Origin: a virus
Reading direction: 5' to 3' (one strand)
Virus record (IMG/VR): IMGVR_UViG_3300044835_000040
Location: 65,071-129,070 of that record
DNA: 64,000 bases
A program made the translations under genes and the position numbers. Positions within the stretch are counted from its first letter, which is position 1. Every line of letters begins with the position of its first letter. Below are positions 13,442 to 59,843 of this stretch, piece by piece. The notes under the pieces were generated by a model. It did no database searches, was not told the DNA's origin, and was given only the letters and a program-made list of their open reading frames with translations.

Positions 13442-14668
13442 GTGCCTGCTTACCCGACTCCTGACGAGCTGATCCAGCTCCACCATGCGGATCCGGTCCC
13501 TGCAGCGTTCTTCGATGTCACACAGGAGGTGCTGGGCACCCTCGGCCGCCTGGACCTGACGCTCGCGAACGCGACGACGCTGAAGGCGAACGCGGGGCCG
13601 GGTGCAGACAAGGCCGGGATGGGGATCAAAGGCCAGCTGCGCTTCGTCACCGCGAACGTCGAACAGTCGATGCCGGGCGGCTCGGCGGCAGGCCGGTACA
13701 ACATCTACGTCACGACCGGCGCGACGCTGATCGCCGGGGAAGAAGACACGACGGATTACAGCTGGCAGCTGGCGATCATCAAAGAAGGAGGCGGCGCGCC
13801 CGGCACCGCGTACTTCAAGCTCGTCGGCTACCTCGACTACTCGGGCACCGCGATCACCCGTCTCGTGCAGATCTTCGGACGCCGGGACGACGCGCCGAAG
13901 GCGGCCGTCTCTCCCAGTGTCGGCGTCCCGGCGCTGGAGGCGATCATGCCAGCGTCCTCCACGGCCAACCCGATCCAGGCCCTCGTCGGCGGCACGCCGG
14001 TCTTCAGCGTCGGTCCGACGGGCGCACTCGCGATCACGAGCGGGCTGACGGCCGCGAACGCAGCGCTCGGCAAAAACGACCGCAACGCGCTGACGCTGAC
14101 CGGGGCTGCGGCGGGGATGACACTCGGCGGCGACACGCAGCTCTACCGCTCGGCGGCGAACCTACTGGCGACGCCGGGGTCGCTCGCAGCGGGCGGGTTC
14201 CTGCAGGCCAACCAGGACGCGTTCGTCGGCGGCGTGCTGCATCTCGGCGCGTTCGGCGGGACGCTGTTCGACACGCAGCTCGAACGGACGGCCGTGAACA
14301 CGCTGAAGACGCCGGGCGTGCTGCAGGTCGGCGGCAACCTCGCGCTGGTCTCGAACACGGGCGCGCTGCTGTTCGGCGCGGCGGGCGACACGAACCTGTA
14401 CCGCTCGGCAGCGGGCGTGCTGAAGACCGACGGGCAGTTCGTCGTCGCTGGCGGGCTGACGATCACCGGCTCGACGGCGTACGAAGGCACCGCGTTCGGC
14501 ATCTTCGGTGTCACGCCGATCGGGCGCCGCACCGGCTGGGGCGCACCGTCGCCGCCCGGCGGCGCGAAACGCACGCCGCTGATGTACGGGTCGACGTTCG
14601 CGAACCTGATCGACGAGTTCGAGACGCTGAAGGCCGACCTGATGGCCTACGGCTGGCTGGGCGCCTGA
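13442..14668 (+). CDS. tail fibre / virion protein
   Basis: Repeated DTQLYRSAAN/DTNLYRSAAGVLKTDG fibre motifs. Confidence 0.75.
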   Translation: MPAYPTPDELIQLHHADPVPAAFFDVTQEVLGTLGRLDLTLANATTLKANAGPGADKAGMGIKGQLRFVTANVEQSMPGGSAAGRYNIYVTTGATLIAGEEDTTDYSWQLAIIKEGGGAPGTAYFKLVGYLDYSGTAITRLVQIFGRRDDAPKAAVSPSVGVPALEAIMPASSTANPIQALVGGTPVFSVGPTGALAITSGLTAANAALGKNDRNALTLTGAAAGMTLGGDTQLYRSAANLLATPGSLAAGGFLQANQDAFVGGVLHLGAFGGTLFDTQLERTAVNTLKTPGVLQVGGNLALVSNTGALLFGAAGDTNLYRSAAGVLKTDGQFVVAGGLTITGSTAYEGTAFGIFGVTPIGRRTGWGAPSPPGGAKRTPLMYGSTFANLIDEFETLKADLMAYGWLGA

Positions 14669-17694: not shown

Positions 17695-19266
17695 ATGATC
17701 ACCGTCACAGCGAAAGCCGCAGCGGCCGCCGATGGGAAGTCGTTCACGATCACGTGGACGCCGAGCAGCACCGAACGGCTCGCGGAATTCCTGATCCACT
17801 ACCGCAAGAAGGGCGTGGCTAGCTGGTCGACCGTCAGGGTATCTGCGGCGGCTCGCTCGCAGCTACTGGAAGTCGCGCCGGGCGAATACGAATGGCAGGT
17901 CCGCGCGGTCGAAGCGGGCGGTCTTGCCTCCGGCACGGTGACGGTCGCGGCGCCCGTGGTGCAGGAAGGACCGACGCTGATGAGGACGGCGGACGAGTCG
18001 GGGGTCGTGGTGTCTGCGGTCCCGGCCGCGGCGGTCGCGGTGAACTTCGCGCAGATGAAGGACACGAGCGCGACCGGCATCATCTACACGCCGAAAGGCG
18101 TGAGGGTCGGGGCGACGTTTACGCCGCAGTCGATCACGCCGGTCGTGGACGCGATCGGTGTGGACGCCGCTGGCAAAGAGGTCGGGGTGTGGCAGTCGAG
18201 TCTGCCGGGGCATTCGCGGATCACGACGGTCCCGATACCCACGCCGACACCGACGCCTGAACCGCCAGCGCCTGCGGGGATGCGGTGGCTGGGGCTGCAC
18301 GGCGGCAACTGGGGCTCGCAGGCACCGATCGACATCGGGGGCATGGGCGTGAAGAGGGTCCGGCTGCCGTCGGGGAGGCTATCGGCCGAGGCTGCGGGCT
18401 ACAAGGCGCAGGGCTTCGAGATCATCGGGATCTTCGGCGAAGGCGGCTCGCTCGGGTCTCTCGCGGCCGGAGCTGCGGGCTACGCCGAAGGCGTCGCTGA
18501 AGCGGCCGTGAAGTACGACCTGCTCGCGGTCGAGGTGACGAACGAGTGGGGCGGCAACTGGTTCTGGTCGGACGCGGGGAACATCCCGGCGATGCGGTCG
18601 CTGATCAAGGCGACCCGCGAAGCGATCGATCGTGTGGGCCACAGGGCGAAGGTGCTTGGCTCGTTCGACGGTGGCAAGGGCGGCAACGAAGGCGTGAGCT
18701 TCGGCGAAAGGGCGCACGCGGAAGGCGTGTTCGCGCCGTGCCACGGCGTCACCGTGCACCCGTATGGCGGCAGCTCGGGCGGCAACGGCGGGGGGGGAGG
18801 GGACCGGCACAAGTGCCTGCGGGCGATCGAAGTGACGGGCCTGGATCTGTGGGTCACGGAGCTGGGCTGGCCGACGGGCACGGGCTCGACGGGCGACTCG
18901 CAGTCGTGGTCGGAGGCGCAGCAGGCGGCGAGCTACGCGTCGTTCATCGTGTTCTTCGAGGCGACTCCGCGCTTCGTGTGCCTGATCTTCTACGGCTACA
19001 AGAACACGTCGGATTCCGGCGCCGACCAGTACGGCGTGGAGATGCACGACAGCAGTCGCCACAAGCCCGCGTTCGCGGTGCTCGGCAACGCCTGCAAGGC
19101 GCTCGCTGCGAAACAGGCGATGCTCCCGGCGCTGGCTGGGATGCTCGAATGCGAGATGCCGCCGGTCGACGAGCAGCAGCCGGGCACGGAGGAATTCGCG
19201 TGGGGGCTGGGGGAGAAGCTGACCCCGCACCAGCTGGCTGATCGCGCTCACGCGTCGATGCGGTAG
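17695..19266 (+). CDS. FN3 + PT-linker + clan GH-A glycoside hydrolase
   Basis: FN3-like N-terminus, PTPTPTP linker, EVTNEW acid/base, VHPY, WVTELGW nucleophile. Confidence 0.8.
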   Translation: MITVTAKAAAAADGKSFTITWTPSSTERLAEFLIHYRKKGVASWSTVRVSAAARSQLLEVAPGEYEWQVRAVEAGGLASGTVTVAAPVVQEGPTLMRTADESGVVVSAVPAAAVAVNFAQMKDTSATGIIYTPKGVRVGATFTPQSITPVVDAIGVDAAGKEVGVWQSSLPGHSRITTVPIPTPTPTPEPPAPAGMRWLGLHGGNWGSQAPIDIGGMGVKRVRLPSGRLSAEAAGYKAQGFEIIGIFGEGGSLGSLAAGAAGYAEGVAEAAVKYDLLAVEVTNEWGGNWFWSDAGNIPAMRSLIKATREAIDRVGHRAKVLGSFDGGKGGNEGVSFGERAHAEGVFAPCHGVTVHPYGGSSGGNGGGGGDRHKCLRAIEVTGLDLWVTELGWPTGTGSTGDSQSWSEAQQAASYASFIVFFEATPRFVCLIFYGYKNTSDSGADQYGVEMHDSSRHKPAFAVLGNACKALAAKQAMLPALAGMLECEMPPVDEQQPGTEEFAWGLGEKLTPHQLADRAHASMR

Positions 19267-19330
19267 GTGTTCGAGCACGTCCGGTGGCCGCGCTAGTTTC
19301 ACCGCTACTGCGACTACTGGAGGTGCGAGA

Positions 19331-27965: not shown

Positions 27966-28206
27966 TGGACGCCTACACAAACGATGTTCGTAACTGCGCT
28001 CGCTGCGGCGGCGATCACGACGGCGTGGTGTTCGAGCCGTTGACACGACCGGTCGCGCGCGGCGGCGACCGCGAGGACTCGTTGCTCTACACGCACTGGG
28101 CGGCCTGTCCGACGAACGGCGAGCCGATCATATCGCTGGCGCGCCCGCGCACGCCGCCGGGTCCTCCTTCGCCCCCGAAGCCGGACCGTCACCGCCCGAT
28201 CGGCTG

Positions 28207-28371
28207 ATGCCGGACTGGGGCTACACGCGGGGCGGCAACTGGTACGACGGGCTCCCCACACGGGTCTACCGCGGGTTCTACGGGCTGTCCTCGCAGCAGA
28301 AGATCGTGGAGAGCCAGCGCGACAAAGGCAAGCTCGCGGTGTTCCCCGACTGTAAGCGGCTGTGGTGGTGA
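28207..28371 (+). CDS. small hypothetical protein (not in ORF track)
   Basis: MPDWGYTRGGNWYDG...RLWW, coupled to neighbours by overlaps. Confidence 0.5.
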   Translation: MPDWGYTRGGNWYDGLPTRVYRGFYGLSSQQKIVESQRDKGKLAVFPDCKRLWW

Positions 28372-28451
28372 AGCGGGCTCTCCCGACGCTGCTGGTCGCG
28401 TCGCTACTGGTGCTGGCCGCCGCGGCCGCGATCTTGCTGCAGCATCTCTGA
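28368..28451 (+). CDS. 27-aa single-TM peptide
   Basis: MKRALPTLLVASLLVLAAAAAILLQHL, GTGA overlap. Confidence 0.5.
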   Translation: MKRALPTLLVASLLVLAAAAAILLQHL

Positions 28452-28470
28452 CGGCCGGTAGGATCCAGCT

Positions 28471-28549
28471 CGGACGGGCCGCGCATGGTGTGCGGGAGAT
28501 CCCGTAACCCGTCCCCAAAGTCGCGGCATGAAACAGAGCGGCCCGTCCG
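28471..28549 (+). ncRNA. candidate small structured RNA
   Basis: TAGGAT -10-like hexamer at 28459; perfect 12-bp closing stem CGGACGGGCCGC/GCGGCCCGTCCG; intergenic. Confidence 0.4.
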
Positions 28550-28571
28550 TTCACTCGCGTAGGGTCGGCCG

Positions 28572-29195
28572 ATGACTCCCCTGCTGGAGCAGCAAGAGCT
28601 GCTGGAGGTGCCACCGGAGCGGACCGTCGCGTTGCCGACGACGATCAGCCCGACGGCGGGCTGGTGGGGCGTCGACATATCCACCGCTCGCTACAACATC
28701 GGGTTCATCGACCGCGACGGCCAGCGCGGTGTGCACAGCGTGAAGCTCGGCGCGGCGAACGACAACGAGGGCGAGCGGCTGAACCGCTTCCAGCGGCAGA
28801 TGTGCACGCTCACGGAGACGATGCTCGCCGAGCCGGGCGTCCCGTTGCCGGGCGTGGTGTTCGTGGAGCAGCCGGGCGGGCAGACGGTGATGCCGATCCT
28901 CTGGTACGCGGCGGGGATCGCTGCGCAGGCGATCTACCAGACGGTCAACCGGATCCACGGCTACGTGCCGCGTGTGGAGACGATGCCGCCGTCGAAGTGG
29001 AAGAAGATCGCGGTCGGCAGGGGGAACATCTACAAGCCCGCGCGCAAGAAGGGCCAGCCGCCACCGCCGATCGACGCGTACCCGGTGTGGGTCTGGGCGC
29101 GCACGCTGGGGATGCCGGAGACGGGCAGCTGGGATGACGCTGACGCGTATGGCGTCGCGGAGGCGGCGCGCAAGACGATAGGGATTGCTCGCTAG
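28572..29195 (+). CDS. RuvC-like Holliday junction resolvase
   Basis: WGVDIS, VFVEQP, PSKWKK.AVGRGN, DDADAYGVA. Confidence 0.85.
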   Translation: MTPLLEQQELLEVPPERTVALPTTISPTAGWWGVDISTARYNIGFIDRDGQRGVHSVKLGAANDNEGERLNRFQRQMCTLTETMLAEPGVPLPGVVFVEQPGGQTVMPILWYAAGIAAQAIYQTVNRIHGYVPRVETMPPSKWKKIAVGRGNIYKPARKKGQPPPPIDAYPVWVWARTLGMPETGSWDDADAYGVAEAARKTIGIAR

Positions 29196-29467
29196 CCTTC
29201 GCGCATGTCCAACGTAGACAAGAGCGCGCTCCCCGCGCTTCAGATCAGGGATCAGGGCTTCGAGCTGCGCCAGCACCCGACGGAAACGGGTCCGGCCGAC
29301 TACATCGGTCAGGGCACGCCGTCGGAGCAGGCGCGCGACCGCGCGCAGGAGGCGGCTGTCGCCGCGTGTCCTGCTCATCGCGTGGTCGTCGGCACGATGA
29401 GCTGACGGTGGCGCCGCCGGGGGCGGCTGCTACTGTCTCGCGCTGCAACCGATCGCTGGGAGGTGTG

Positions 29468-29917
29468 GTGCTCACCGCTGATGAGGAACGCGCGAAGGCG
29501 CGTGCTCGCTATCACCGTCGTAAGGCTGAAGACCCCGAGCGGGTCGCGCGGCAGTCTCGTGAATCGAGCCGTGCGTATCGCAGGGGTCCGCATCGCGAGA
29601 TGGTGCTGAGCATCGAAGCGATGCGGCTTCGAGGGCACTACGCTCGCGCGACGCCTGAGCAGAAACAGGCGATACGGCTGCGGTCGAGGCGCAAAGGCGC
29701 TGCCCGTCCCGACGCTGAGTACGGCGTGCAGGGCGATCCTTGCTGTTACTGCGGCGCTCGGATGGAGCACGTGGATCACGTGGACCCTGTTGCTCGTGGT
29801 GGAGGCGGCGGCTGGGAGAACCTAACCGCCGCCTGCGCGCCGTGCAACCTCACGAAGGGCGCACGCACGCTGCTCGTGTACCTCGTCGAAAGGAGGCGTC
29901 CCACGACAACCCGATAG
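29468..29917 (+). CDS. HNH endonuclease
   Basis: CCYCG...HVDHVDPVARGGGGGWENLTAACAPCNLTKG. Confidence 0.88.
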   Translation: MLTADEERAKARARYHRRKAEDPERVARQSRESSRAYRRGPHREMVLSIEAMRLRGHYARATPEQKQAIRLRSRRKGAARPDAEYGVQGDPCCYCGARMEHVDHVDPVARGGGGGWENLTAACAPCNLTKGARTLLVYLVERRRPTTTR

Positions 29918-30018
29918 GTCGCTGCGCGCACGAGGGATGCAAAGCGCGCCGGGGGAAGTCCCGTACCCCGAAGGCAAGCGGCCGGGCTGACGATGCAAAC
30001 AACCCTGGAGGTCTGTTC

Positions 30019-30657
30019 ATGTTGGGACGACGCTCAGTCGTCGCGTTCGCCGTCGTGGCTGCACTGGTGGGCGTGGTAGGAGCGCCGGGCGCGGGGTCTG
30101 CGGACACCGCGATAGTCGCACCGCCGTTGTCGCCGACGCTGGCGCCGACGGTGCTGGAAGTGAAGGTCGTGAGGCCGCCGCACAGGAAGATCGTGCATCG
30201 GCGGTTCGTGCCGTGGTCGGAGCCGTCGTTTGCTCAGGCGCAGCAGATCATCACGATCGAGGCCGAACGCGAGGGTGTGTCGCGGGCCGGGTTGGAAAAC
30301 CGGCTGATGTGCGAGAGCAAACTCGTGTGGTCGGCCAAGAACGGCCAGTACGAAGGGATCGGGCAGTTCGCCTCGGAGACGTTCGGCCGGGGGATGGGCT
30401 CGATCGGGTCGCGGCGTGTGGAGGTGCGCGAGGAACGCGTGCGGCGTGTCGTGGCGAAGCGGGTGCACGTGATGAGCGACGGCAGCGAAGTCGTCGTCGC
30501 GCGCTGGCGCGTGAAGCAGGTCGTGGTGTACATCGAGCGGGGAATGATCCCGCGCGACCCGCCGCTGACGCACGCGTGGGCACAGGTACGGATCGCCGCG
30601 GAGGCCATCGCCGGAAGGTCGGCTGTGTCGTCCTCGGAGTGGTCGTGTAGCACCTGA
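30019..30657 (+). CDS. secreted lytic transglycosylase/Rpf-like protein
   Basis: Signal peptide; CES...NGQYEGIGQF...TF lysozyme-fold motif. Confidence 0.6.
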   Translation: MLGRRSVVAFAVVAALVGVVGAPGAGSADTAIVAPPLSPTLAPTVLEVKVVRPPHRKIVHRRFVPWSEPSFAQAQQIITIEAEREGVSRAGLENRLMCESKLVWSAKNGQYEGIGQFASETFGRGMGSIGSRRVEVREERVRRVVAKRVHVMSDGSEVVVARWRVKQVVVYIERGMIPRDPPLTHAWAQVRIAAEAIAGRSAVSSSEWSCST

Positions 30658-30661
30658 GAGG

Positions 30662-30708
30662 AGACGGGTTGGTCGGCGGCCAGGGATGGCGCCGACCGGT
30701 CGTTTCGC
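30662..30708 (+). terminator. stem-loop after the transglycosylase-like gene
   Basis: GGTCGGCG...CGCCGACC inverted repeat followed by GTTTC. Confidence 0.45.
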
Positions 30709-30802
30709 CAGCACTGGAGCCAGATTCGGAGCGACCGTCTGTCGCACGCGACTTGACGCGTTCGATAGAATGTTAGTGCAACCGATTCTTGTGGAGGTGC
30801 GA

Positions 30803-31048
30803 ATGGCGACTCTCGAAGTCGTGCAGGACGAGCGGGCAGCAAGGGCGAGGCTGCGTCATCTGCAGAAGGCGCGCAAGGCAGCGGAGCGGGCGCGCGAGCG
30901 CCGACGCCGCGAGGACGAGCGCGCGAGGTCGGCGTACCGGCGGTGGCTGGTCGCGGAGAAAGAGGCGTACACGCGGCAGGCCGCGGAGCCGGGGAACCGG
31001 AAGCTGCACGAAGCGTGGCTGGAGATGTGGCATCGGTGCCCGCGGTGA
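30803..31048 (+). CDS. small Arg-rich coiled-coil protein (best antisense target)
   Basis: ATG after the GCAACCGATTCTTGTGGAGGTGCG leader. Confidence 0.65.
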   Translation: MATLEVVQDERAARARLRHLQKARKAAERARERRRREDERARSAYRRWLVAEKEAYTRQAAEPGNRKLHEAWLEMWHRCPR

Positions 31049-31096
31049 GCTACCATCTGTCGCGGCGAAGGGGCAACCGATTCGAGGGAGGTGCGT

Positions 31097-31399
31097 ATGG
31101 CGGCTGAGCGGAAATCCGCGGATGTCAGCAAGATGCTGAGCGGCGTGGGCAAGCGGGAGCTGGTGAAGTTCCTGCAGGAGGATCCGCGGGTTCGCGATTG
31201 GCTGGGATCCGGGGTGCTGATGAGCACGTCAGAAGCCGCGGAACTGCTGGAGGTGGAGCGCGGCCGCGTGTGGCGGTGGGTCAACATGGATCGCATCCAG
31301 TCGGTCGCGATCACGGGCGCGACGCCGCTGTTCCTGCGCGCCGATGTGCTGGCGCTGAAGCGAGAGCTGGCTGCCGGGAAGTCGAAGGCCGCGGCGTGA
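31097..31399 (+). CDS. excisionase/MerR-type HTH DNA-binding protein
   Basis: LMSTSEAAELLEVERGRVWRWV...LFLRADVLAL. Confidence 0.75.
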   Translation: MAAERKSADVSKMLSGVGKRELVKFLQEDPRVRDWLGSGVLMSTSEAAELLEVERGRVWRWVNMDRIQSVAITGATPLFLRADVLALKRELAAGKSKAAA

Positions 31400-31839
31400 T
31401 CGCGAAGGTCAACTGGACCTTCAACGAGGTGGACGGCTGGTGGGAAGCTCGCATGGACGATCGCCGCAAGCTGCGGATCGGCTGGGACGAGAGCGACGCG
31501 TCGTTCTACCTGAGCGTCGGTGTGGAACCCCCGCCGAACGTCACCGCCGAGACCGGGTACAGGCACTTCCAGGTGTCGCTGCCGCTGCTCGTCGCGATGC
31601 TGCTGGTGCCGCGCTCAGAGCACGCACGGATGCTTGACACGGTGGCCGTCGCGCTGGTCGACGTGCGTGACCGTGAGGTGATCGGGAAGCTGCACGACGT
31701 GATGGCGTTCTCGATGGAGGACTGGCCGAAGCCGCTCGTCGCTGCAGAGTCGCTGAAGCTGGCTGCGGAGGCTGCGCCGCGCCTGGAGCGGCTGTCGCTC
31801 GACATGGCTGCGGCGGGGGCGTTCGGCGATGGCGCGTGA
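31396..31839 (+). CDS. hypothetical protein
   Basis: Coupled ORF. Confidence 0.55.
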   Translation: MIAKVNWTFNEVDGWWEARMDDRRKLRIGWDESDASFYLSVGVEPPPNVTAETGYRHFQVSLPLLVAMLLVPRSEHARMLDTVAVALVDVRDREVIGKLHDVMAFSMEDWPKPLVAAESLKLAAEAAPRLERLSLDMAAAGAFGDGA

Positions 31840-32007
31840 GCCTCGGACGCCTGTGCTGCGCCTGGACGCGCAGTCGGTGGCGACATGGGCTGGGACGGTC
31901 GCGACACGGAAGGATCTCCGCAGCGCGCTGGAGGAACTGCCGAACGACGACGCGCGGATGACGATCGTGCTCGACACGCTCCGTGACCGCTTCGACGAGA
32001 AGCCCTG

Positions 32008-32709
32008 ATGTACGGCGACGCCGCGTACCGGCAGCACTTCCACGCGCCGTCGGGCGGGGTCGATAGCAAGGGCTACCCGGAGGCGTGGGGATGGGTCAAG
32101 GACGAGGTGCGCGAGTTTGTCGGGCATCGCTGCATCCGCTGTGGGCATCCGTACCGCGTCGGGCAGGAGTCCTTCTGGTCGGAGCCTGCGGCCGAGGCGT
32201 CGGTGCGCGAGGCGGCCGGGCTGGCGCTGTTCGACTCGGAGCCGACGGACGAGCCGCGCGTGAAGCGCGAGCGCCCGGTCCACTGGTCGCCGTGCGATGA
32301 GCACTGCCGCCACGGTGGCCTGATTCGCCGCGACATGGGCGAGATGGGGCCTGACGACGAGGTGCTGTGGGATGTACACGACATCGGTGCGGCGACGCTC
32401 GATCTAGCGCCGGGGATGGGGCCGGTGCAGGCGGCGTGGCGGATCCTGACCGTGCATCACGCCAACGGCAACAAGCTCGATCTGCGCTGGTGGAACCTGT
32501 TAGCTTTGTGCCAACGGGATCACCTATCGGTACAGAGCCGGGTCGTGATGGACCGCCCGTTCATCCTTGAGCACTCCGGCTGGTTCAAGCCCTACGCAGC
32601 AGGTTTCTATGCCTCCAAGTATCTCGGTGAAGACATCACGCGCGAGCAGGCCGAAGGGCGGCTCGACGAACTGCTCGCCTTCGAGCGGCGCGACCGGGCC
32701 ACGGCGTAG
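32008..32709 (+). CDS. HNH-like nuclease with insertion
   Basis: YPEAW..VKDEVRE..GHRCIRCG ... LTVHHANGNKLD...NLLALCQRDHL. Confidence 0.75.
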   Translation: MYGDAAYRQHFHAPSGGVDSKGYPEAWGWVKDEVREFVGHRCIRCGHPYRVGQESFWSEPAAEASVREAAGLALFDSEPTDEPRVKRERPVHWSPCDEHCRHGGLIRRDMGEMGPDDEVLWDVHDIGAATLDLAPGMGPVQAAWRILTVHHANGNKLDLRWWNLLALCQRDHLSVQSRVVMDRPFILEHSGWFKPYAAGFYASKYLGEDITREQAEGRLDELLAFERRDRATA

Positions 32710-33166
32710 CTGCGACTGCGCCGATCTCACCGGTTGCAAGGTCTGTCGCCACCGAGAGAAGCAACGTCGTCGCTACCACGGGCTACCGCCGCTCGCTCCA
32801 CTGCCCAACGCGATGCGGATCCGGGAGTCGCGGCTGGTGCTGCCGGATGACCCAATCACACGCGCCTACATCGCGGGGTTGTTCGACGGCGAGGGCAGTA
32901 TCACTCGCCAGCGCTGGCCGGTCCTCCAGGTCGGGATGACTGACGAGGGCGTCATCCGCTGGCTGGCAGCGATGGGCGGCAGCCTGCGCGTCGAGCAACC
33001 GCCCGGCAACCGGCAGCTGCTCTACCGCTGGCGTGTGCTCGCGCGTCGCGAGGTCATCGAGATGCTGGAGATGATGCTGCCGTACTTGCGCGTGAAGCGG
33101 AAAGCGGCGATAGCTGTGCTGGAGGAGCTGCTGGCGCTGGAGCGTATTTCGGTTGCGGAGACGTAG
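32567..33166 (+). CDS. LAGLIDADG homing endonuclease (start uncertain)
   Basis: AYIAGLFDGEGSI motif and LPYLRVKR tail. Confidence 0.85.
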   Translation: MSTPAGSSPTQQVSMPPSISVKTSRASRPKGGSTNCSPSSGATGPRRSCDCADLTGCKVCRHREKQRRRYHGLPPLAPLPNAMRIRESRLVLPDDPITRAYIAGLFDGEGSITRQRWPVLQVGMTDEGVIRWLAAMGGSLRVEQPPGNRQLLYRWRVLARREVIEMLEMMLPYLRVKRKAAIAVLEELLALERISVAET

Positions 33167-33181
33167 GTCGCCCGCTATAGT
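33153..33181 (+). promoter_or_regulatory. sigma70-type promoter for candidate sRNA
   Basis: TTGCGG-17 bp-TATAGT. Confidence 0.7.
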
Positions 33182-33185
33182 GGTC

Positions 33186-33292
33186 GCATCGATCCCGATG
33201 GATCGGTGTAGCGGTCGGCCTAACGGCCACCGCCGCACCTCCAGAAGAATCGGTTGCAGGGAGCGCCGCCGCAAGGCGGCGTTTCCATTTCT
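33186..33292 (+). ncRNA. candidate trans-acting antisense sRNA
   Basis: Two 5' hairpins (33186-33209, 33211-33233); unpaired CGCACCTCCAGAAGAATCGGTTGCA, a 24/25 reverse complement of 30777-30801; GCAA-loop terminator hairpin 33259-33286. Confidence 0.75.
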
Positions 33293-33347
33293 ACGACCGG
33301 TCCGGTGGGTACGCTCGGCAGCGTCAACATTCGATCGGAGGTGCGAG

Positions 33348-33674
33348 ATGGCGCAGGGGAAAGAGCCGACGACGCGTGAGCCGTCGCCCTACCACGTGTA
33401 CGAGGTGGTCGACCGGCCGCGGCAGATGGTTGCGGAGGAGACGGGCGAGGAGAGCATCGAGGGCGGCCCCGAGACGCTGAAGCTGGTCGAAACGCTGCAG
33501 GCGACGAGTAGCGCTGATGCGGACCGGCAGTGGCGCTCGATACTGGAGGACGAGTTCCGTGTCGGAGGCCGCAGTGGCGAAGTCGAGTACCGCTGCATCG
33601 CGGCCCGCTTCGCTGAGCCGCTGTACTACGCGGGCGCACAGCAGAAGATGGTTGTGACTGGTGGCACCCGGTAA
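33348..33674 (+). CDS. hypothetical protein
   Basis: ATG after GGAGGTGCGAG. Confidence 0.6.
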   Translation: MAQGKEPTTREPSPYHVYEVVDRPRQMVAEETGEESIEGGPETLKLVETLQATSSADADRQWRSILEDEFRVGGRSGEVEYRCIAARFAEPLYYAGAQQKMVVTGGTR

Positions 33675-33928
33675 GGAGCGGCACGCGCAGCTCGCCGCGG
33701 ACCTGGGCCACTTCAAGGACCCGGCGACCGGCGAGCCGATGGTGTACGCGGCGAAGGCGTGGCGCCGATGTCTGGCTGACCTGTTCTACCTGTCGCGTGT
33801 GCGGCTGGTAGGGCAGGGGCAGGCCGGTGTGGAGACGTGCGAGACCTACGGTCACGAGGGCGGAATGCGCTGCATACGCTGCGGCGCGCTGGTTCAGTAG
33901 ATAGGGGTCCGGCCTTACCTTCCAGAGG

Positions 33929-35971
33929 GTGACGGCAAGGCCCTCGATCGGTTCCCTCGAAGACCTGCCTGACGTTCACGGGCCGTTCGGTGATGGGCAG
34001 GTGCCGGTCTGGTCGCAGTCGCAGGGAGCGTTCGTTCCGGGCGCTGGCGGCGGTGGCGGTGGCGGCACGGGCGCGACTGGGCCGCAGGGAGCGACTGGTC
34101 CCGCAGGCAGCCAGGGCGCAACGGGCGCTGCTGGCGCAACGGGCGCGGGCGGTGTGCAGGGAGCGACGGGTCCCGTCGGCGGTCTCGGCGCGACCGGCGT
34201 CAACGGCGCGACCGGAGCTGGCGGCGCGCAGGGAGCGACCGGTCCCGCGGGTGGACTGGGCGCGACGGGCGTGGCTGGCGCTACTGGTGCTGGAGGCCCG
34301 GCGGGAGCGACAGGTTCGGTCGGTGCGGCTGGCGCGACAGGTGTCAAAGGAGCCACGGGCACAGAAGGTCCGGCTGGCGCTACGGGCGCCGCTGGGACCG
34401 TCGGAGCGACCGGTGCTGGCACCGTGGGCGCGACGGGAGCGAAAGGCACGACGGGTTCAGAAGGGCCTGCTGGGGCGACCGGCGCAGCGGGCACCGTGGG
34501 CGCTACCGGCGCGGGCACCGTGGGGGCTACCGGCGCGAAAGGTGCAACGGGCACCGAAGGCGCTGTCGGTGCGACCGGCGCGGGTACGGTCGGCGCGACC
34601 GGGGCCAAAGGAGCCACGGGCAGCGAAGGGCCAGCTGGCGCGACTGGCGTCAAAGGCACGACCGGCTCGGAAGGCCCCGCGGGCGCGACTGGAGCTGCAG
34701 GCACCGTCGGGGCGACTGGCGTCAAAGGAGCTACGGGCACCGAAGGTGCCGCCGGGGCCACTGGAGCGAAAGGCACCACGGGCTCGGAAGGTCCTGCTGG
34801 TGCCACGGGAGCTGCCGGTACGGTCGGCGCGACTGGCGCGGGCGGCGCGGCGGGCGCCACGGGAGCGAAAGGAGCGACTGGGACCGAAGGTGCCGCTGGC
34901 GCGACCGGTGCGGCGGGCACGGTCGGTGCCACTGGCGCCAAAGGCACGACGGGGTCGGAAGGCCCTGCGGGTGCGACGGGCACGACCGGTGCGGCGGGCG
35001 CCACTGGCGTGAAAGGAGCGACCGGATCAGAAGGTCCGGCTGGCGCCACGGGGACGACCGGTGCTGCTGGCGCGACGGGCGCCAAAGGAGCGACGGGCAC
35101 CGAAGGTCCGCAGGGCGCGACGGGTCCGGCGGGGGCTGCTGGCGCGACTGGAGTGACGGGCGCGACGGGCAGCGGCGGCCCGCAGGGAGCTACCGGGCCG
35201 GAACCGAGCGGCGCGCTGCTGAAAACGAACAACCTCTCCGATGTCGCGAACACGGGCACCTCCCGCGCGAATCTGAAGGACTCGACTCTCGCTCCGGCAA
35301 TCGCAGTGTCGACGGCGAACATCGCGTCGCTCGAAGGCACGCCGGAAGTCGACGGCTACAAACTCGCTGAAGAAGACACGGTGCTGCTGACGGGGCAGAC
35401 CGAAGCGAAGAACAACGGGCCGTGGGTCGTGCCCGTGGGCGCGGGTGCGTGGACCAGACCGGCTGACTACGCGACGGGGATGGAAGTCCGGGCGCGCCTA
35501 ATCATGGTCGTGAAAGGCACGGTGTACGCCAACTCCGTGTGGATGCTCTCGACGCGGACGTTGATCACGGTCGGCACGACCGCATCGACCTGGGTCCGCT
35601 CGAATAAGACCCGCCACCGCACCGGTCACGCGTGGGTCACGCGCGGCACTGAACCGTGGGCGATCGAAACGATCCAGGGTCCGCCCGTCCGCCCGGCGAC
35701 CGCGGAGACGCAGTACATCGCTGGCGTCGACTGGACGAAAGTCACGTCGGGCACCTCCCCGAAAGTCAGCTTCAAGATCCAGGTCAACGGCGCGGACGTG
35801 GGGCTCGGCACGACCGCTTCGCCGCTGCTGATGGAAGCCGCTGACGGCAACTCGATGCTGACGACGCCAGTCGAACTGAAAGCCGGGGACGACATCACGC
35901 TCGTGATCCTCGCGATCTCCACCGCGCCGCTCGGCGGGCGCATCGGCCTGCACATCGACCACGTTGCATGA
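33929..35971 (+). CDS. long collagen-like (Gly-X-Thr) fibre protein
   Basis: About 125 GXX triplets; C-terminal [17 protein letters not shown] fibre-type domain. Confidence 0.88.
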
Positions 35972-36674
35972 TGGGAGCACGATGATCGCCATTGCCGGAA
36001 GGTTGACGCCGCTGCTCGTGGACTTCGGCCGCAAGAAGGTGGGGCTCGAACACGTCGGCTACCGGCTGCTGAACACAGACGGCACGGTCCACACGGCGCG
36101 CACCGAGACGGGCGTCACCGCCGTCGCGTCCGGTATCTACCGCGTCGCGGTGTCGCTGCCCGCGGGCTGGTCGGGCGCGGTGGAGTGGGACACGGGCGAG
36201 ACGGTGCCGGTGTACGCGATCGAGGCGATCGAGGTCGCGAACCTCGACGATCTCGACGCGACGATCTCCAGCCGCGCGACGCTCGCGAGCCTCGCGAACA
36301 CTTCGATCCAGGTGGTAGGCCCGGTGAGCACGACAGGCACGATCTCGATCCTCGCGGGCGACGACTATCTCGCGTCGGACACGCGAGCGCTGGTGTGGGA
36401 AGACGTGACGGGCACGCGCTGGCCGTCGCTCTCGGGCGCGACGATCACGCTCGACGTGTTCGACGAGTCGATGGGCGAGAAGTTCTCGACGGTCGGCCAT
36501 GAAGTCTCGGCGGTGTCGCCAGCGCGCAAGGTGAGCGTCGACATCCCCGGCGTCGACACGCTGAACGTGCCCGGCAAGTGGCGCTACCGGCTGTGGGCGG
36601 TGCTCGTCGACGGATCGAAGGTCACGCTCTCGAATGGGCCGTTCACGATCCTGAGTCCCTTCCTCAGCGCTTGA
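35964..36674 (+). CDS. probable virion-associated beta-rich protein
   Basis: Coupled to the collagen gene; Ig/BppU-like character. Confidence 0.55.
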
Positions 36675-36730
36675 CAGAGCGACCATCGGTTGCTATGTTG
36701 GCGGCGCAACCGATCGAAATGGAAGGTGCG
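36671..36730 (+). promoter_or_regulatory. promoter with operator and conserved leader
   Basis: TTGACA-17-TATGTT; spacer holds GCGACCATCGGTTGC; followed by GCAACCGA...GGAAGGTGCG. Confidence 0.85.
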
Positions 36731-36749
36731 AGATGGAGATTGAGCAGCG

Positions 36750-36950
36750 ATGATCGTCGCCCGCTTCAACTGCGGCAACTGCGGTCACGGCCCGTACGAG
36801 GTGGAGGACAACCGTGACGCGCCGATCCCGGCGTACGCGATCCCGGTCACGGTCCACCACGCTGACGGGGAGGGGCACCCGCTGCATCTGTGCTTGCGGT
36901 GCGAGACGGACCTGCCGCAGTTCTTGAACAAGGCCGCGGTGGTGTCGTGA
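36750..36950 (+). CDS. small zinc-finger protein
   Basis: CGNC...CLRC. Confidence 0.55.
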   Translation: MIVARFNCGNCGHGPYEVEDNRDAPIPAYAIPVTVHHADGEGHPLHLCLRCETDLPQFLNKAAVVS

Positions 36951-37315
36951 GGGCTGGGCTGGCGACGCGGGGACAGATCGACCCGCGACGGATCGATCGG
37001 GCGCGCGAGCGTCTGCGCTCGCGCGCGCAGTTCGATCAGCTGCAGGCCAGCCTTGATCGCCTGCAGGGTCAGGCCGACCGGGTAGGCGCGATCGACGTGC
37101 TGGTCTTGCGGCGGGATGGATCCGTCGGACGGCTGATCACGCGTGGGTCGGGGCTGCTGGACGACTCGTGGTGGCCGACGCCGCTACGCCGCTGGCCGGT
37201 GCGTGCAACGCGCTTCGGGGAGTGGGTCCGGGTGCGGTCGGCCGACGGTAAGACCGACGAGGTTGGCATGATCATCGAACGCTACAAAGGAGGTGCGAGT
37301 GGGACTGAGGGCTGA
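36947..37315 (+). CDS. hypothetical protein
   Basis: Coupled ORF. Confidence 0.5.
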   Translation: MRAGLATRGQIDPRRIDRARERLRSRAQFDQLQASLDRLQGQADRVGAIDVLVLRRDGSVGRLITRGSGLLDDSWWPTPLRRWPVRATRFGEWVRVRSADGKTDEVGMIIERYKGGASGTEG

Positions 37316-37781
37316 TCAGCTGACGGTCCGGATGGACACGAAGGGCTTCGGTAGCTGGCTGCGCCGTACGCGCGAAAGCCGTGGCCTGGAACTGAAGGAG
37401 CTGGCCGCGGCGTGCGACATTCGTGTCGGCACGCTCGGCGAACTGGAGCTGGACAACCGGCGCAATCCGGGGATCCCCGGCATCGAGATCTTCGCCCGGA
37501 TCGCGCGTGGCCTGGACCTGGAGCTGAGCTACGTGCTGCACAAGGCCGGGTTCGATCTGGGCGCGGGCGGTGTGAACCTGGACCGGCTGCATCGCATCGA
37601 GATGCTGATGGAGATGCTGGACCAGGAAGCGCCGATGATCAGGCGGGCCATCGCGGAGGGCATGGACCAGCTCGACGGCGGCGGCACGGGCAGGGACGAA
37701 ACCATAAACCGGCTCGGCAGGGCGCTCGGTGCGCTCGACCTTGTGACCGAGCGTGTCAGGGAAGGGAGGCGGGTCGCGTGA
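37299..37781 (+). CDS. XRE-family HTH transcriptional regulator
   Basis: FGSWLRRTRESRGLELKELAAACDI....LGELE..NRRNP......RIARGL. Confidence 0.88.
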   Translation: MGLRADQLTVRMDTKGFGSWLRRTRESRGLELKELAAACDIRVGTLGELELDNRRNPGIPGIEIFARIARGLDLELSYVLHKAGFDLGAGGVNLDRLHRIEMLMEMLDQEAPMIRRAIAEGMDQLDGGGTGRDETINRLGRALGALDLVTERVREGRRVA

Positions 37782-38557
37782 GCGCACCTACCGCAGAGAC
37801 CACGAAGCTGCTGACGAAGCAGCAGAAGTACCCGTACCGCTGGGACATCGTGCGGATCGATGAGATGTACATCGACTCGCGCTACCAGCGTGACCTGAAA
37901 CCGATCACGGGTGAGTTCGACCCGCGGATCGTCGGGATGCTCACGCTGAGTGAGCGTCCGCGTCAGGGCAAGCAGTACAGCGTCATCGACGGGCAGCGCC
38001 GCCGGGATCTGATCAAACGCGAGGGCATCGACATAGCGCCCTGCGTGATCTTCTACGACCTGAGCGTCGAGGACGAGGCGACGCTGTTCTCGTTGTTCCA
38101 GCGGGAACGCAAGACGATTACGCCGTACGAGCGCTACCGGGCGGATCTCGTCGCGGGGCACCCGACGGTGAAGGCGATCGACAAGATCCTCCGGGAGGAG
38201 GGCTTCGAGATGGCGCCGTTCGAGACGACGCCGAAGTCGGTGCGTGCGGTGAGGGCCGTCGAAACGATCTACGGCGAAGAACCGGAGCTGCTGCGCAAGA
38301 CGCTTCAGCTGGTCGCGCGCACGTGGCCGGAGGTGCCGGGCTCGGCGAGCGAGAAAATGCTGAAAGGGCTCTCGATCTTCGTCGCGACGACGAAGGACCT
38401 GGACGAGGAGAAGTTCGTCCGGCGGCTGAAGGGCACGCTCCCGTCGCAGATCGACCGGAGGGCCACGTATCTGCGTGACTCGCGGGAGCTGACGGGCACC
38501 TCGCCGAAGTTCTACGCCGAGGTGATCGAGCAGATGTACCGGAAGGGCAAAGGGTAA
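37778..38557 (+). CDS. ParB/Srx-like (DUF6551-type) protein
   Basis: IDSRYQR and VIDGQRR motifs. Confidence 0.75.
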   Translation: MSAPTAETTKLLTKQQKYPYRWDIVRIDEMYIDSRYQRDLKPITGEFDPRIVGMLTLSERPRQGKQYSVIDGQRRRDLIKREGIDIAPCVIFYDLSVEDEATLFSLFQRERKTITPYERYRADLVAGHPTVKAIDKILREEGFEMAPFETTPKSVRAVRAVETIYGEEPELLRKTLQLVARTWPEVPGSASEKMLKGLSIFVATTKDLDEEKFVRRLKGTLPSQIDRRATYLRDSRELTGTSPKFYAEVIEQMYRKGKG

Positions 38558-38707
38558 GGCCGGTGGTGCACGAAACCGGCTTCGAGCACATGCTGACTCA
38601 CATGAGCGTCGGCGGCGGCATCGCGTTTGCGGTGCTCGTCGTCGGCGTCGCGTGGGTCATCGTGACGTTCCTGCGCGCGCTGTGATGAGCGGTCCGGCTG
38701 GGAGGGC

Positions 38708-39640
38708 ATGATGAGCGGCGTGCCGTTGATCGACGAGAAGCCGCCCGCGCAGATCATCCGCGAGCGGAGGGTGCACATCGCGCATCTGCAGGCCGAGCTG
38801 GAGCGGATCGTGCAGCGCAGGCGGATCCTCGACGAGCTGGAGGAGAAGTACGAAGCGGACCTGAAGGCGTCGCTCGCTGCCGAAGAACGGCGGGCTCAGC
38901 TCGGCCCGCAGCTGCCGGAGGAGGTGGCCGAGGCCGATGGGCACGTGAGTAACGGCTTCGAGAAGTTCACGCCGGAGGTGGTGCGCAGCGCAAGGCAGAC
39001 GGTCGCTCGTGCGCAGCTGCCGGAGGAGGTGTTCCGCAACCGGGTGGTGGACGTGGGCTGCTTCACGATCCCGGAGCTGGCCGCGATGCTGGAGGTGCCT
39101 GCGGGGATCGTGAAGGAGCGCGTGCTCGAATGGCTCGACTCGGGGAAGCTGAAGTCGATCGGGAAGTTCGCGCAGCACATGATGTACGAGTACGTGCCGC
39201 CGCAGGAGCCGGGCGCCGCGTTCAAGGCGCAGCAGGCCACGCGTCCCTCTGAGCGCCCGGAGCAGCTGGCGCACCACGGCGGCCTTGACACAGGCGGCAT
39301 CCCGAACGGGCAGGCCGCGATGCTCTCGCGGCTGGAGAAGGTTGTGCGCGTGCAGGCACGCAAGGCGGTAAGGGCGGGCTGGGAGATCACCGAGCTGGCG
39401 TCCGGGCACGGGTTCGCGCTCACGAACGGCGAGGCGCGGATCACGCTGTCGCACTCGCCGCGCAACGCGGGCGGTGAGGCGATGCGGATCATCGAGGCGA
39501 TGCGCAAATCGAGCAACGGCAAGCGCGGTGAGCCCGTGCCGAACACGGGCCGTCCGATCGGGCCGTCGGGGAAAGTGAACCTGGATCGCAAACGTGGGCT
39601 CGCGGGTAAGAAGGTGCTCTCCAAGAAGGGCAAACACTGA
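38708..39640 (+). CDS. coiled-coil + wHTH protein with HicA-like C-terminal segment
   Basis: FTIPELAAMLEV wHTH; GWEITELASGHGF...ITLSHSP. Confidence 0.5.
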   Translation: MMSGVPLIDEKPPAQIIRERRVHIAHLQAELERIVQRRRILDELEEKYEADLKASLAAEERRAQLGPQLPEEVAEADGHVSNGFEKFTPEVVRSARQTVARAQLPEEVFRNRVVDVGCFTIPELAAMLEVPAGIVKERVLEWLDSGKLKSIGKFAQHMMYEYVPPQEPGAAFKAQQATRPSERPEQLAHHGGLDTGGIPNGQAAMLSRLEKVVRVQARKAVRAGWEITELASGHGFALTNGEARITLSHSPRNAGGEAMRIIEAMRKSSNGKRGEPVPNTGRPIGPSGKVNLDRKRGLAGKKVLSKKGKH

Positions 39641-58973: not shown

Positions 58974-59843
58974 ATGAGCGACCAGCACCTGCAACGGGGA
59001 CTGCTGAAGGCCCGCGCTCTGGACGAGGGCATGAGCGAGGCGCTGTTCGAGAGGTGGCTGTTCGCAGAGAACGTCGCGCTCGGGTGCGCGCCGTGGGACG
59101 CGCTGAAGCAGGCCGACCGCTACCGGGAGGTGCTGAGCGCGATGCTCGCGTTCGTGCGTGGTCGCCCTGCGGAGCAGCGGCGCAGCACGGCGCATCTCTA
59201 CGACTCCCGTGTCGACACGTACCAGCACATCGACGTGGTGCGCGGCTACCTGAACGACGTGATCATGGAGCTGATCGCTCGCGGGGAGAGGCACGACCAG
59301 TCGAAGCTCCAGTCTCCTGAGCGCGAGGCGTTCGACGAGTTCACGCCGAAGCTAAAAGAGCTGACGTACGGCAGCGACGAGTACAAGGCGACGCTCGACG
59401 CGATGTCCGGCGCGCTTCACCACCACTACGCCGCGAACAGCCATCACCCGGAGCACTTCGGGAAGGGCATCGACGAGATGACGCTGCTGGATCTGATCGA
59501 GATGGTCTGCGACTGGAAGGCCGCGACGGAGCGTCACGATGACGGTGATATTCGCCGGTCGCTGCAGGTCAACGCGGAGCGGTTCGGGATCGGTAAACAG
59601 CTGCGGTCGATCTTGCTCGCGACGATCGAGGAGCGCGGCTGGCTGGAGCCGAAGACGCCGCTGCGTAAGGTCGGCACGCGCGAGGAGCTGCACGAGGTGC
59701 GGTCGCTCGGCACCGTGGATGGGCAGGCCGGTGTCTGGAAGCTGGTCTGCTGCTGCGGCTGGGAGAGCCTGGAGCGCGAATCGGCAGCGGGCGTCGAGGT
59801 TGAATACGGCCATCACCGTCGGCATGTGCTGGGGCTCCCGTGA
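58974..59843 (+). CDS. DUF5662 / HD-fold protein
   Basis: HIDVV...RHDQSKL...HHYAANSHHPEHF...DLIEMVCDWKAA. Confidence 0.8.
   Translation: MSDQHLQRGLLKARALDEGMSEALFERWLFAENVALGCAPWDALKQADRYREVLSAMLAFVRGRPAEQRRSTAHLYDSRVDTYQHIDVVRGYLNDVIMELIARGERHDQSKLQSPEREAFDEFTPKLKELTYGSDEYKATLDAMSGALHHHYAANSHHPEHFGKGIDEMTLLDLIEMVCDWKAATERHDDGDIRRSLQVNAERFGIGKQLRSILLATIEERGWLEPKTPLRKVGTREELHEVRSLGTVDGQAGVWKLVCCCGWESLERESAAGVEVEYGHHRRHVLGLP

Follow-up and report, generated by a model that had tools for sequence, protein, structure and literature searches.

A conserved candidate RNA element that mirrors the leader shared by many genes of a G+C-rich phage genome

The virus record IMGVR_UViG_3300044835_000040 (hereafter G000; a soil phage, 129,070 bp, 68% G+C) places a common promoter and leader before many of its genes and carries one copy of that leader in reverse orientation, and the question raised by this locus is what the reversed copy does. 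It lies in a small intergenic unit at 33153-33292 of the window analysed, which is the second half of the record (64,000 nucleotides, record positions 65,071 to 129,070); coordinates are window positions unless the genome is stated. A sequence-only reading of the window had proposed that this unit encodes a phage small RNA (sRNA) antisense to the leader of many of the phage's own genes, acting as an immunity or early-to-late switch. Our analyses, which included the sole relative retrieved (G001), indicate that 33153-33292 is probably a conserved RNA element of the + strand, and that it would likely act by pairing with leaders that contain a Shine-Dalgarno (SD) sequence. Antisense control in trans of these leaders, chiefly that of gene 30803 in G000, is the reading we prefer, with a probability of about 45%.

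With respect to its organization (Table 1), the unit has the traits of a stand-alone bacterial-type sRNA gene: a promoter, an intrinsic terminator, no coding potential and preservation in a relative, the promoter consensus being weak and the relatives numbering one. The promoter TTGCGG-17-TATAGT, the 25-mer that mirrors the leader (the anti-leader) and the GCAA-loop terminator were all found as the sequence-only reading had described them, and the + orientation that it had assigned was upheld. The + strand folded better than the - strand (-63.5 vs -59.4 kcal/mol; z -5.99 vs -4.39), the U-tail was present on the + strand only, and the minus-strand open reading frame (ORF) behind the inverted leader (33230-33054, 58 aa) had a G+C content at third codon positions (GC3) of 0.41, compared with 0.83-0.85 in neighbouring genes. 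The terminator was the sole terminator-like site listed by the scan in 28000-39000. The -35 of the unit overlaps both an inverted GCAACCGA copy (33149-33156) and the final codons of the preceding LAGLIDADG ORF. From these features we infer a small, independently terminated non-coding transcription unit, with a predicted RNA of ~100 nt that would start near 33188 and end at 33285-33292. No Rfam family was matched at gathering score over the 64-kb window, and at E<=10 the region 33100-33400 gave two chance-level hits only (a trypanosomatid snoRNA and leuA-Halobacteria), with no match to the C4 antisense family.

The evidence for pairing comes from the 25-mer. As had been noticed, it is the reverse complement of 30777-30801 at 24 of 25 positions (1 mismatch), and none of 100 shuffles gave 2 matches; even its spacer agrees with the 30778 leader at 6 of 7 positions. 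Throughout the 129-kb genome it is the lone leader in reverse orientation (6 forward, 1 reverse). When the whole + strand of G000 was scanned for duplexes with the anti-leader, the top 7 sites were all cassette leaders (-47.9, then -39.7 to -36.2 kcal/mol), the best non-leader reached -35.0, and 14 of the top 22 sites were leaders with both box 1 (defined below) and an SD. Full-length duplex folding with opening costs over-extends in this GC-rich DNA and was not used. Two-part complementarity to phage mRNA, including the ribosome-binding site, is the way of working of the c4 and CI RNAs; it is present here, and both blocks are kept in G001.

The mirrored sequence belongs to a cassette whose order is -35, a palindrome GCGACC-N3-GGTCGC in the spacer, -10, GCAACCGA (box 1), 2-12 nt and GGAGGTGCGAGATG. 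There are 16 such leaders in G000 and 11 in G001, and each of the 8 operator palindromes of G000 has box 1 after it. Box 1 starts 5-8 nt past the -10 hexamer in 13 of the 16 G000 cassettes and in 10 of the 11 of G001; therefore, by ordinary promoter geometry, the mRNA would begin with it, so that the mirror image in the 25-mer takes in the whole predicted 5' untranslated region (UTR). All the box positions given by the sequence-only reading were correct. Both boxes precede 29445, 30778, 31073, 36706, 45974, 47509 and 57880; a full cassette is detailed in Table 1, and others stand at 29445, 31073, 45974, 47509 and 57880, to which the first half of the genome adds 9. At 19319, 23411, 33337 and 37289, GGAGGTGCG occurs without the other box, and protein scans confirmed the products named for three of these sites as RecT (19319), a HerA-like protein (23411) and an XRE-type helix-turn-helix regulator (37289). 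Within box 2, GGAGGTG amounts to the usual SD consensus, complementary to the 3' end of 16S rRNA, so the genes with box 2 alone (RecT, HerA-like, XRE) simply have strong ribosome sites. The genes led by cassettes are mostly small and without assigned function: of 10 proteins that were scanned, known functions were limited to RecT (SD only) and an HNH endonuclease, two belonged to PHROG families of unknown function and six had no match. Given so few known functions, the term "early regulon" is inferred from promoter type and not from gene function.

The relative G001 (122,744 bp) was brought in via the alignment of HNH homologues and has 64-77% nucleotide identity to G000 in coding blocks. Both genomes have the order HNH gene, gap, p104 (41% identical to p108), p76 (69% identical to p79) and fibre gene, the flanking proteins being 41-69% identical, and in both the unit sits between the HNH gene and p108/p104. 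The intergenic DNA of the unit is in no BLAST high-scoring segment pair between the two genomes. The G001 gap holds TTGCCG-17-TATTGT, two hairpins, a GCAA-looped hairpin, CGUGCCUCC-AACAG-UAGGUUGC-C-GGAGG and a hairpin followed by GUUUCUGUUUGU; the frame common to both is TTGC(G/C)G-17-TAT(A/T)GT, 5' hairpins, CCUCC-N5-7-U(C/A)GGUUGC and a U-tailed hairpin. Counted by eye, 10 of the 12 hexamer positions of the promoter are identical in the two phages, and 7 of the 17 in the spacer. Two pairs of the terminator are kept in G001 by changes on both sides.

In G001 there were 7 forward and 0 reverse copies of GCAACCGA-N-GGAGG. The pattern CCTCC-N3-14-T[AC]GGTTGC had 1 match on the + strand of G001, within the homologous gap of ~210 nt, and 10 on the - strand at 9 forward leaders, two of them overlapping. 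A leader variant, GCAACCTA, occurs 0 times in G000 and in 4 forward and 1 reverse copies in G001, where the reverse copy is the anti-box UAGGUUGC of the RNA unit. The G001 anti-SD differs from that of G000 by CA->UG and still pairs with GGAGGUGCG via two G.U pairs; since this change keeps pairing by G.U only as + strand RNA, it points to the + strand RNA reading. The anti-box variant and the wobble changes are thus suggestive of RNA-level selection on the + strand, in an argument that rests on two substitutions. Leaders kept without the antisense copy, which the sequence-only reading had named as refuting its proposal, were not seen in this one relative, G001 having both.

Several results weigh against control in trans. 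The -35 hexamer TTGCGG is weak (3/6 identical to TTGACA), and the site was not listed by the promoter scan. In the minimum free energy (MFE) fold of G000 (-63.7 kcal/mol) the 25-mer is paired with 33186-33209 and only AGAAGAA stands in an internal loop. The two hairpins with an unpaired 25-mer described by the sequence-only reading are not this MFE; they are an alternative fold of -56.5 kcal/mol, 7.2 above it, with hairpins 33186-33209 and 33211-33233, the free 25-mer and the terminator, and until the nascent RNA exceeds ~50 nt this two-hairpin fold is its lowest in energy. Freeing the 25-mer has an ensemble cost of only 8.4 kcal/mol, which counts in favour of the trans reading. The 5' fold moreover differs between the two phages, and the pairing stretches, paired in the G000 MFE, have in that of G001 the anti-box mostly in a loop and the anti-SD in a stem. 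With one relative examined, covariation rests on few substitutions. In the ungapped score for G000 only the 30778 leader (24/25) was above chance, the next reaching 19/25, a value also found on the control strand, while the leaders of G001 were not complementary beyond chance (best 19/25, vs 21 and 20 on the control strand). In both G001 duplex scans, coding sites outranked leaders: the two best hits were coding and 7 of the top 22 were leaders, and scans with longer seeds did not separate leaders from the coding background in that genome. For the regulon-wide claim the main support is accordingly the two conserved boxes and not the energies. Of the proposal that one RNA occludes ribosome sites across a dispersed regulon, the ranking of the leaders in the G000 duplex scan stood, and complementarity beyond chance in ungapped alignment was limited to one leader in G000 and none in G001. 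Gene conversion is another possible source of the 24/25 match, the two inverted copies being 2.4 kb from each other. Finally, the likeness of box 1 to the operator half-site (GCGACCGA in G000; GCAACC(A/G)A within the G001 operator) means that box 1 may be a protein site at the DNA level instead of an RNA target.

Table 1. Positions of the RNA unit, its neighbours, its candidate partners and a second small unit (window positions unless a genome is named).
Feature	Position	Strand	Context or basis
HNH gene	32008-32709	+	Upstream of RNA unit; protein family scans
LAGLIDADG-type homing endonuclease ORF	32813-33166	+	Between HNH gene and RNA unit; absent from G001
Promoter-like site TTGCGG (33153-33158), 17-nt spacer, TATAGT (33176-33181)	33153-33181	+	Sequence
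5' segment GCAUCGAUCC-CGAU-GGAUCGGUGU	33186-33209	+	Own hairpin or pairing with anti-leader; MFE, alternative and nascent-chain folds
Hairpin 2, GCGGUcGGCC-UAAC-GGCCACCGC	33211-33233	+	Present in MFE and alternative fold
Anti-leader 25-mer CGCACCTCCAGAAGAATCGGTTGCA: anti-SD CGCACCUCC, spacer AGAAGAA, anti-box-1 UCGGUUGCA	33234-33258	+	Sequence
Intrinsic terminator: GCAA-loop G+C-rich stem (core 33267-33281), then UUUCCAUUUCU (also given as TTTCCATTTC and TTTCCATTTCT)	33259-33292	+	Sequence, fold
SD and start codon of p108	33337-33350	+	Possible cis partner; SD pairs with 33234-33242 in fold of 33186-33375, P(unpaired) <= 0.05
p108 gene	33348-33674	+	Directly downstream of RNA unit; orphan gene, matching itself only
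Best trans partner: entire predicted 5' UTR of gene 30803-31048 (81 aa; no Pfam/PHROG match)	30777-30801	+	24/25; best duplex genome-wide, -47.9 kcal/mol
Example of full cassette: TTGACA, GCGACCATCGGTTGC in spacer, TATGTT, GCAACCGA, GGAAGGTGCGAGATG	36671-36735	+	Pattern and promoter scans
Second small unit (sister unit)	G000 genome 37300-37560 (27.6 kb before window); G001 18200-18360		Corresponding positions in both phages

Under the trans antisense reading, whose steps from transcription through pairing in vivo to the effect on translation are predicted from the sequence features, conservation and complementarity described above, the nascent RNA would fold into two 5' hairpins and leave the anti-leader free. 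The free anti-leader would then pair with cassette leaders and cover their ribosome-binding site, the main partner in G000 being the leader of gene 30803 (24/25), with other leaders pairing more weakly via the two boxes. Translation of the paired genes, and probably the stability of their mRNA, would be lowered.

A sister unit may complement this action. Its promoter-like site is of the late class (TAGGA/TAGAC-N9-TAGATT/TAGCTT), and after it come one small and one large hairpin and a U-tail; the loop of the large hairpin is the identical 14-nt GAUCUCGCACCUCC in both phages, with stems that are wholly different, and it mirrors GGAGGUGCGAGAUC, the SD-to-start part of the leaders. An RNA from this late-class promoter would cover that part of the same leaders, and many virion genes, which appear leaderless, would escape both RNAs. 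The immunity role that had been attributed to the RNA unit was not supported: neither PF00589 (integrase) nor PF07508 (large serine recombinase) had a match in the 86%-complete record, whose incompleteness leaves room for either.

The alternative that survives best, an equally simple reading that we rate as unlikely, is a translational mask in cis, in which a read-through RNA from this promoter or from the HNH operon folds the anti-leader onto the p108/p104 leader and hides its ribosome site, while RNAs from that gene's own promoter-like site lack the mask. When the RNA was folded from its predicted start up to position +25 of the adjacent gene, the SD pairs with the anti-SD in both phages (probability of being unpaired <=0.05 in G000 and 0.00 in G001) and the 5' segment forms its own hairpin; nevertheless, pairing would be predicted for whichever leader stood in cis, and this fold largely restates the complementarity. 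The pairing extends to 13 bp in G001, UCUCCGUGCCUCC with GGAGGUGCGGAGA, which fits an extra G unique to the p104 leader among the leaders compared, but ends at 9 bp in G000. The CA->UG wobble changes suit the p104 partner too, and a cassette-like -10 was recognised by eye between terminator and gene (GCGACTACCAT in G001, TACGCT in G000). On the other hand, a strong terminator separates mask and target, the anti-box-1 is poorly explained by a p108 leader without GCAACCGA, and the 6/7 spacer match to the 30778 leader in G000 is left unexplained. The sister unit is not accounted for either: the gene after it appears leaderless, so a mask in cis makes no sense there.

We consider it improbable that GCAACCGA is the half-site of a phage regulator that binds the cassette operators, the inverted copies at 33149-33156 and 33250-33257 being protein sites that control the locus and the RNA complementarity being incidental. 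Phage helix-turn-helix proteins are encoded at 31097-31399 and 37299-37781. Box 1 is like the G000 operator half-site (GCGACCGAT), the G001 operator (GCAACC(A/G)AACGCTGC) includes it, an inverted copy overlaps the -35, and Pope et al. favoured DNA-binding proteins for comparable inverted repeats in cluster K phages (PMC3203893, in its available text). Such a site would not explain an anti-SD kept beside the anti-box at leader-like spacing in both phages, two substitutions that are wobble-compatible in + strand RNA only, or the promoter and terminator frame.

There is likewise little chance that the unit has no dedicated function and is a decayed inverted cassette copy beside the ordinary terminator of an operon, its persistence being due to chance or to repeat-mediated gene conversion and perhaps tied to homing endonuclease traffic. 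Its 5' arm resembles a degenerate forward leader behind a cassette-like promoter, a LAGLIDADG gene was inserted right alongside, and two genomes only are at hand; yet G001 keeps the unit although it has no endonuclease there, conservation extends to the promoter hexamers but not to the spacer, and the anti-leader pattern occurs once in 122.7 kb of + strand, within the homologous gap of ~210 nt. A promoter-proximal terminator module of the lambda PR'-tR' kind, with a constitutive short RNA and an antiterminator that lets RNA polymerase into the tail-fibre operon, is very improbable: it would suit a promoter with a terminator ~100 nt downstream followed by p108, p79 and a collagen-like fibre gene, but it leaves the anti-leader unexplained, and on the read-through RNA the ribosome site of the first gene would be hidden.

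Two other candidates were rejected. The first, a small gene on the minus strand, had the GC3 of 0.41 given above and no promoter on that strand, and the minus frames of G000 and G001 yield unrelated peptides, as judged by eye. The second, that the RNA unit forms part of a LAGLIDADG mobile element, was discarded because G001 has the unit without the endonuclease.

As for the surroundings of the unit, nearly all G000 genes lie on the + strand, and p108 is followed by p79 and then the collagen-like fibre gene. No tRNA or tmRNA was found in the 64-kb window. The last ~25 nt of the LAGLIDADG ORF (..EELLALER..) resemble the 3' end of the G001 HNH gene (L128 10585-10665) more than the 3' end of the G000 HNH gene does (window 32640-33170). 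From this likeness it seems that the endonuclease gene was inserted into the tail of the HNH gene, so that the old tail was fused to the endonuclease and a diverged copy was left on the HNH gene.

The cassettes presented some further traits. That at 36706 leads into a 6-codon ORF, MEIEQR (window 36733-36753), whose stop overlaps the ATG of a 66-aa gene at 36750 (ATGA), and this ORF may encode a translationally coupled leader peptide. Within the promoter spacer, the operator of G000 is the palindrome GCGACCGATGGTCGC (e.g., window 36677-36691) vs the asymmetric GCAACC(A/G)AACGCTGC, in either orientation, in G001 (e.g., 13616-13630), and box GCAACCGA is kept in both; it seems that the specificity of the regulator changed while the leader stayed constant. 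A third promoter-like motif, G(T/A)GCTACCATC(N)G.., was present at window 31055-31072 and genome 50203-50223, and in G001 at 70407-70431, 89695-89719, 29199-29225 and 72277-72295. This motif shares bases with an operator-like half-site and stands before box 1 or before a leader resembling it, among them the leader of the p104 gene adjoining the G001 RNA unit.

Searches beyond these two genomes were little productive. Megablast and tblastn against 50,697 phage records gave no DNA match, no p108 match and one distant HerA match. Among viral contigs, the p108 and HerA queries yielded little toward relatives, the operator-promoter pattern was found in one unrelated AT-rich contig, and the leader pattern occurred in at least 118 stretches, of which 80 among the matches listed had one match each and were treated as chance; the p79 alignment and the conserved-core pattern retrieved G001 only. 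G002 and G003 lacked the HerA homologue, and no relatives were found among genome contigs. The other 68 HNH loci had no leader, operator or extended-SD motif, and the 27 of them whose downstream 330 nt were inspected showed no comparable unit. Further HNH homologues lie on long contigs, P0005 (60% identity) on one of 124.6 kb and P0016 (52%) on one of 132.4 kb, as do P0008 and P0012. In metagenome contigs the cassette pattern was found in one bacterial-looking contig, where L127 545-579 reads GCGACCGCCGGTCGC-TAT-N9-GCAACCGA upstream of a divergent gene pair; this is probably chance, but could be a host regulator site imitated by the phage cassette.

Among characterised phage RNAs, the c4 RNA of P1/P7 is the closest to the trans antisense reading, sar and OOP being simpler. 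The CI RNA of P4 is of the same kind as c4, which reportedly arises by processing of a longer RNA and regulates a single operon (icd-ant) within an immunity region. Unlike c4, the unit of G000 has a separate promoter and terminator, dispersed candidate targets, no sign of lysogeny and no Rfam match. Both sar and OOP are transcribed opposite a single target, whereas the RNA gene here and its best partner are separated by 2.4 kb, and the match is to a shared leader. In T4, an early read-through RNA hides the ribosome site of several genes and the late RNA does not. The likeness to T4 lies in an upstream complement on the same RNA that is predicted to hide the SD of the next gene; the SD complement and the predicted pairing are present, the second start point being a motif resemblance only. 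The locus departs from T4 masking in the terminator and dedicated promoter that flank the masking stretch, and in that this stretch also matches distant leaders. According to the available text of PMC12197685, c4 is an antisense RNA that pairs around the ribosome-binding site of a phage mRNA and blocks translation, with a structure that presents the pairing stretches, and sar (P22) and OOP (lambda), of 68-77 nt, repress a phage gene by mRNA pairing, OOP being listed as cis and sar as trans; each of the three controls one gene or operon.

The cassette leaders themselves are an analogue of the SAS/ESAS motifs of cluster K mycobacteriophages, and not a member of that group. As described in the available texts (PMC3203893, PMC11373665), the latter are an asymmetric motif at the ribosome site of 13-19 genes, nearly all in one orientation, with about half of the SAS copies behind a sigma-70-like (SigA-like) promoter with an inverted repeat, a function ascribed to "either RNA or protein", and a single reversed site each in Anaya, Adephagia, Angelica and CrimD. 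Both systems place an oriented motif at the starts of a subset of genes, often behind an inverted-repeat promoter, here at 16 leaders in G000 and 11 in G001. They differ in that the cluster K consensus GGGATAGGAGCCC is not matched, the motif here being GCAACCGA-N2-12-GGAGGTGCGAGATG, in phage lineage and genome size, and in that the conserved part here includes the mRNA 5' end.

In the right 30.8 kb of Anaya (JF704106) we found 13 forward and 1 reverse SAS copies. The reverse copy lies in a gene-free gap of 385 nt (59,683-60,066; L218 29683-30067), on the transcribed strand, in the 10-nt loop of the hairpin GCGCGG[CCUCCUAUCC]CCGCGC. This gap region is present in 145 phage records, in 139 of them over >=80% of its length, and the loop CCUCCUAUCC is kept in 6 of 9 phages sampled and differs in the other 3. 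No proposal of an antisense RNA for SAS was found in the available main texts on cluster K phages, and in the available text of PMC11373665 the word "antisense" concerns leftward reads over genes 37-39. It is a doubtful extension of our reading that the two conserved RNAs of G000 and G001, which jointly mirror the entire shared 5' UTR (5' end to SD, and SD to start), would form an early-to-late translational switch to which leaderless virion genes are immune, that the reversed SAS of cluster K would be the same device, and that anti-leader RNAs would be widespread and so far undescribed.

If this were true, an RNA directed against a shared leader would be a one-molecule switch for the whole phage programme. 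It would also give a testable answer to the purpose of SAS, open since 2011, in phages of cluster K, which grow on Mycobacterium smegmatis and for which RNA-seq exists. With regard to annotation, the locus shows that conserved regulators can reside in short, seemingly "empty" stretches that separate the operons of a phage.

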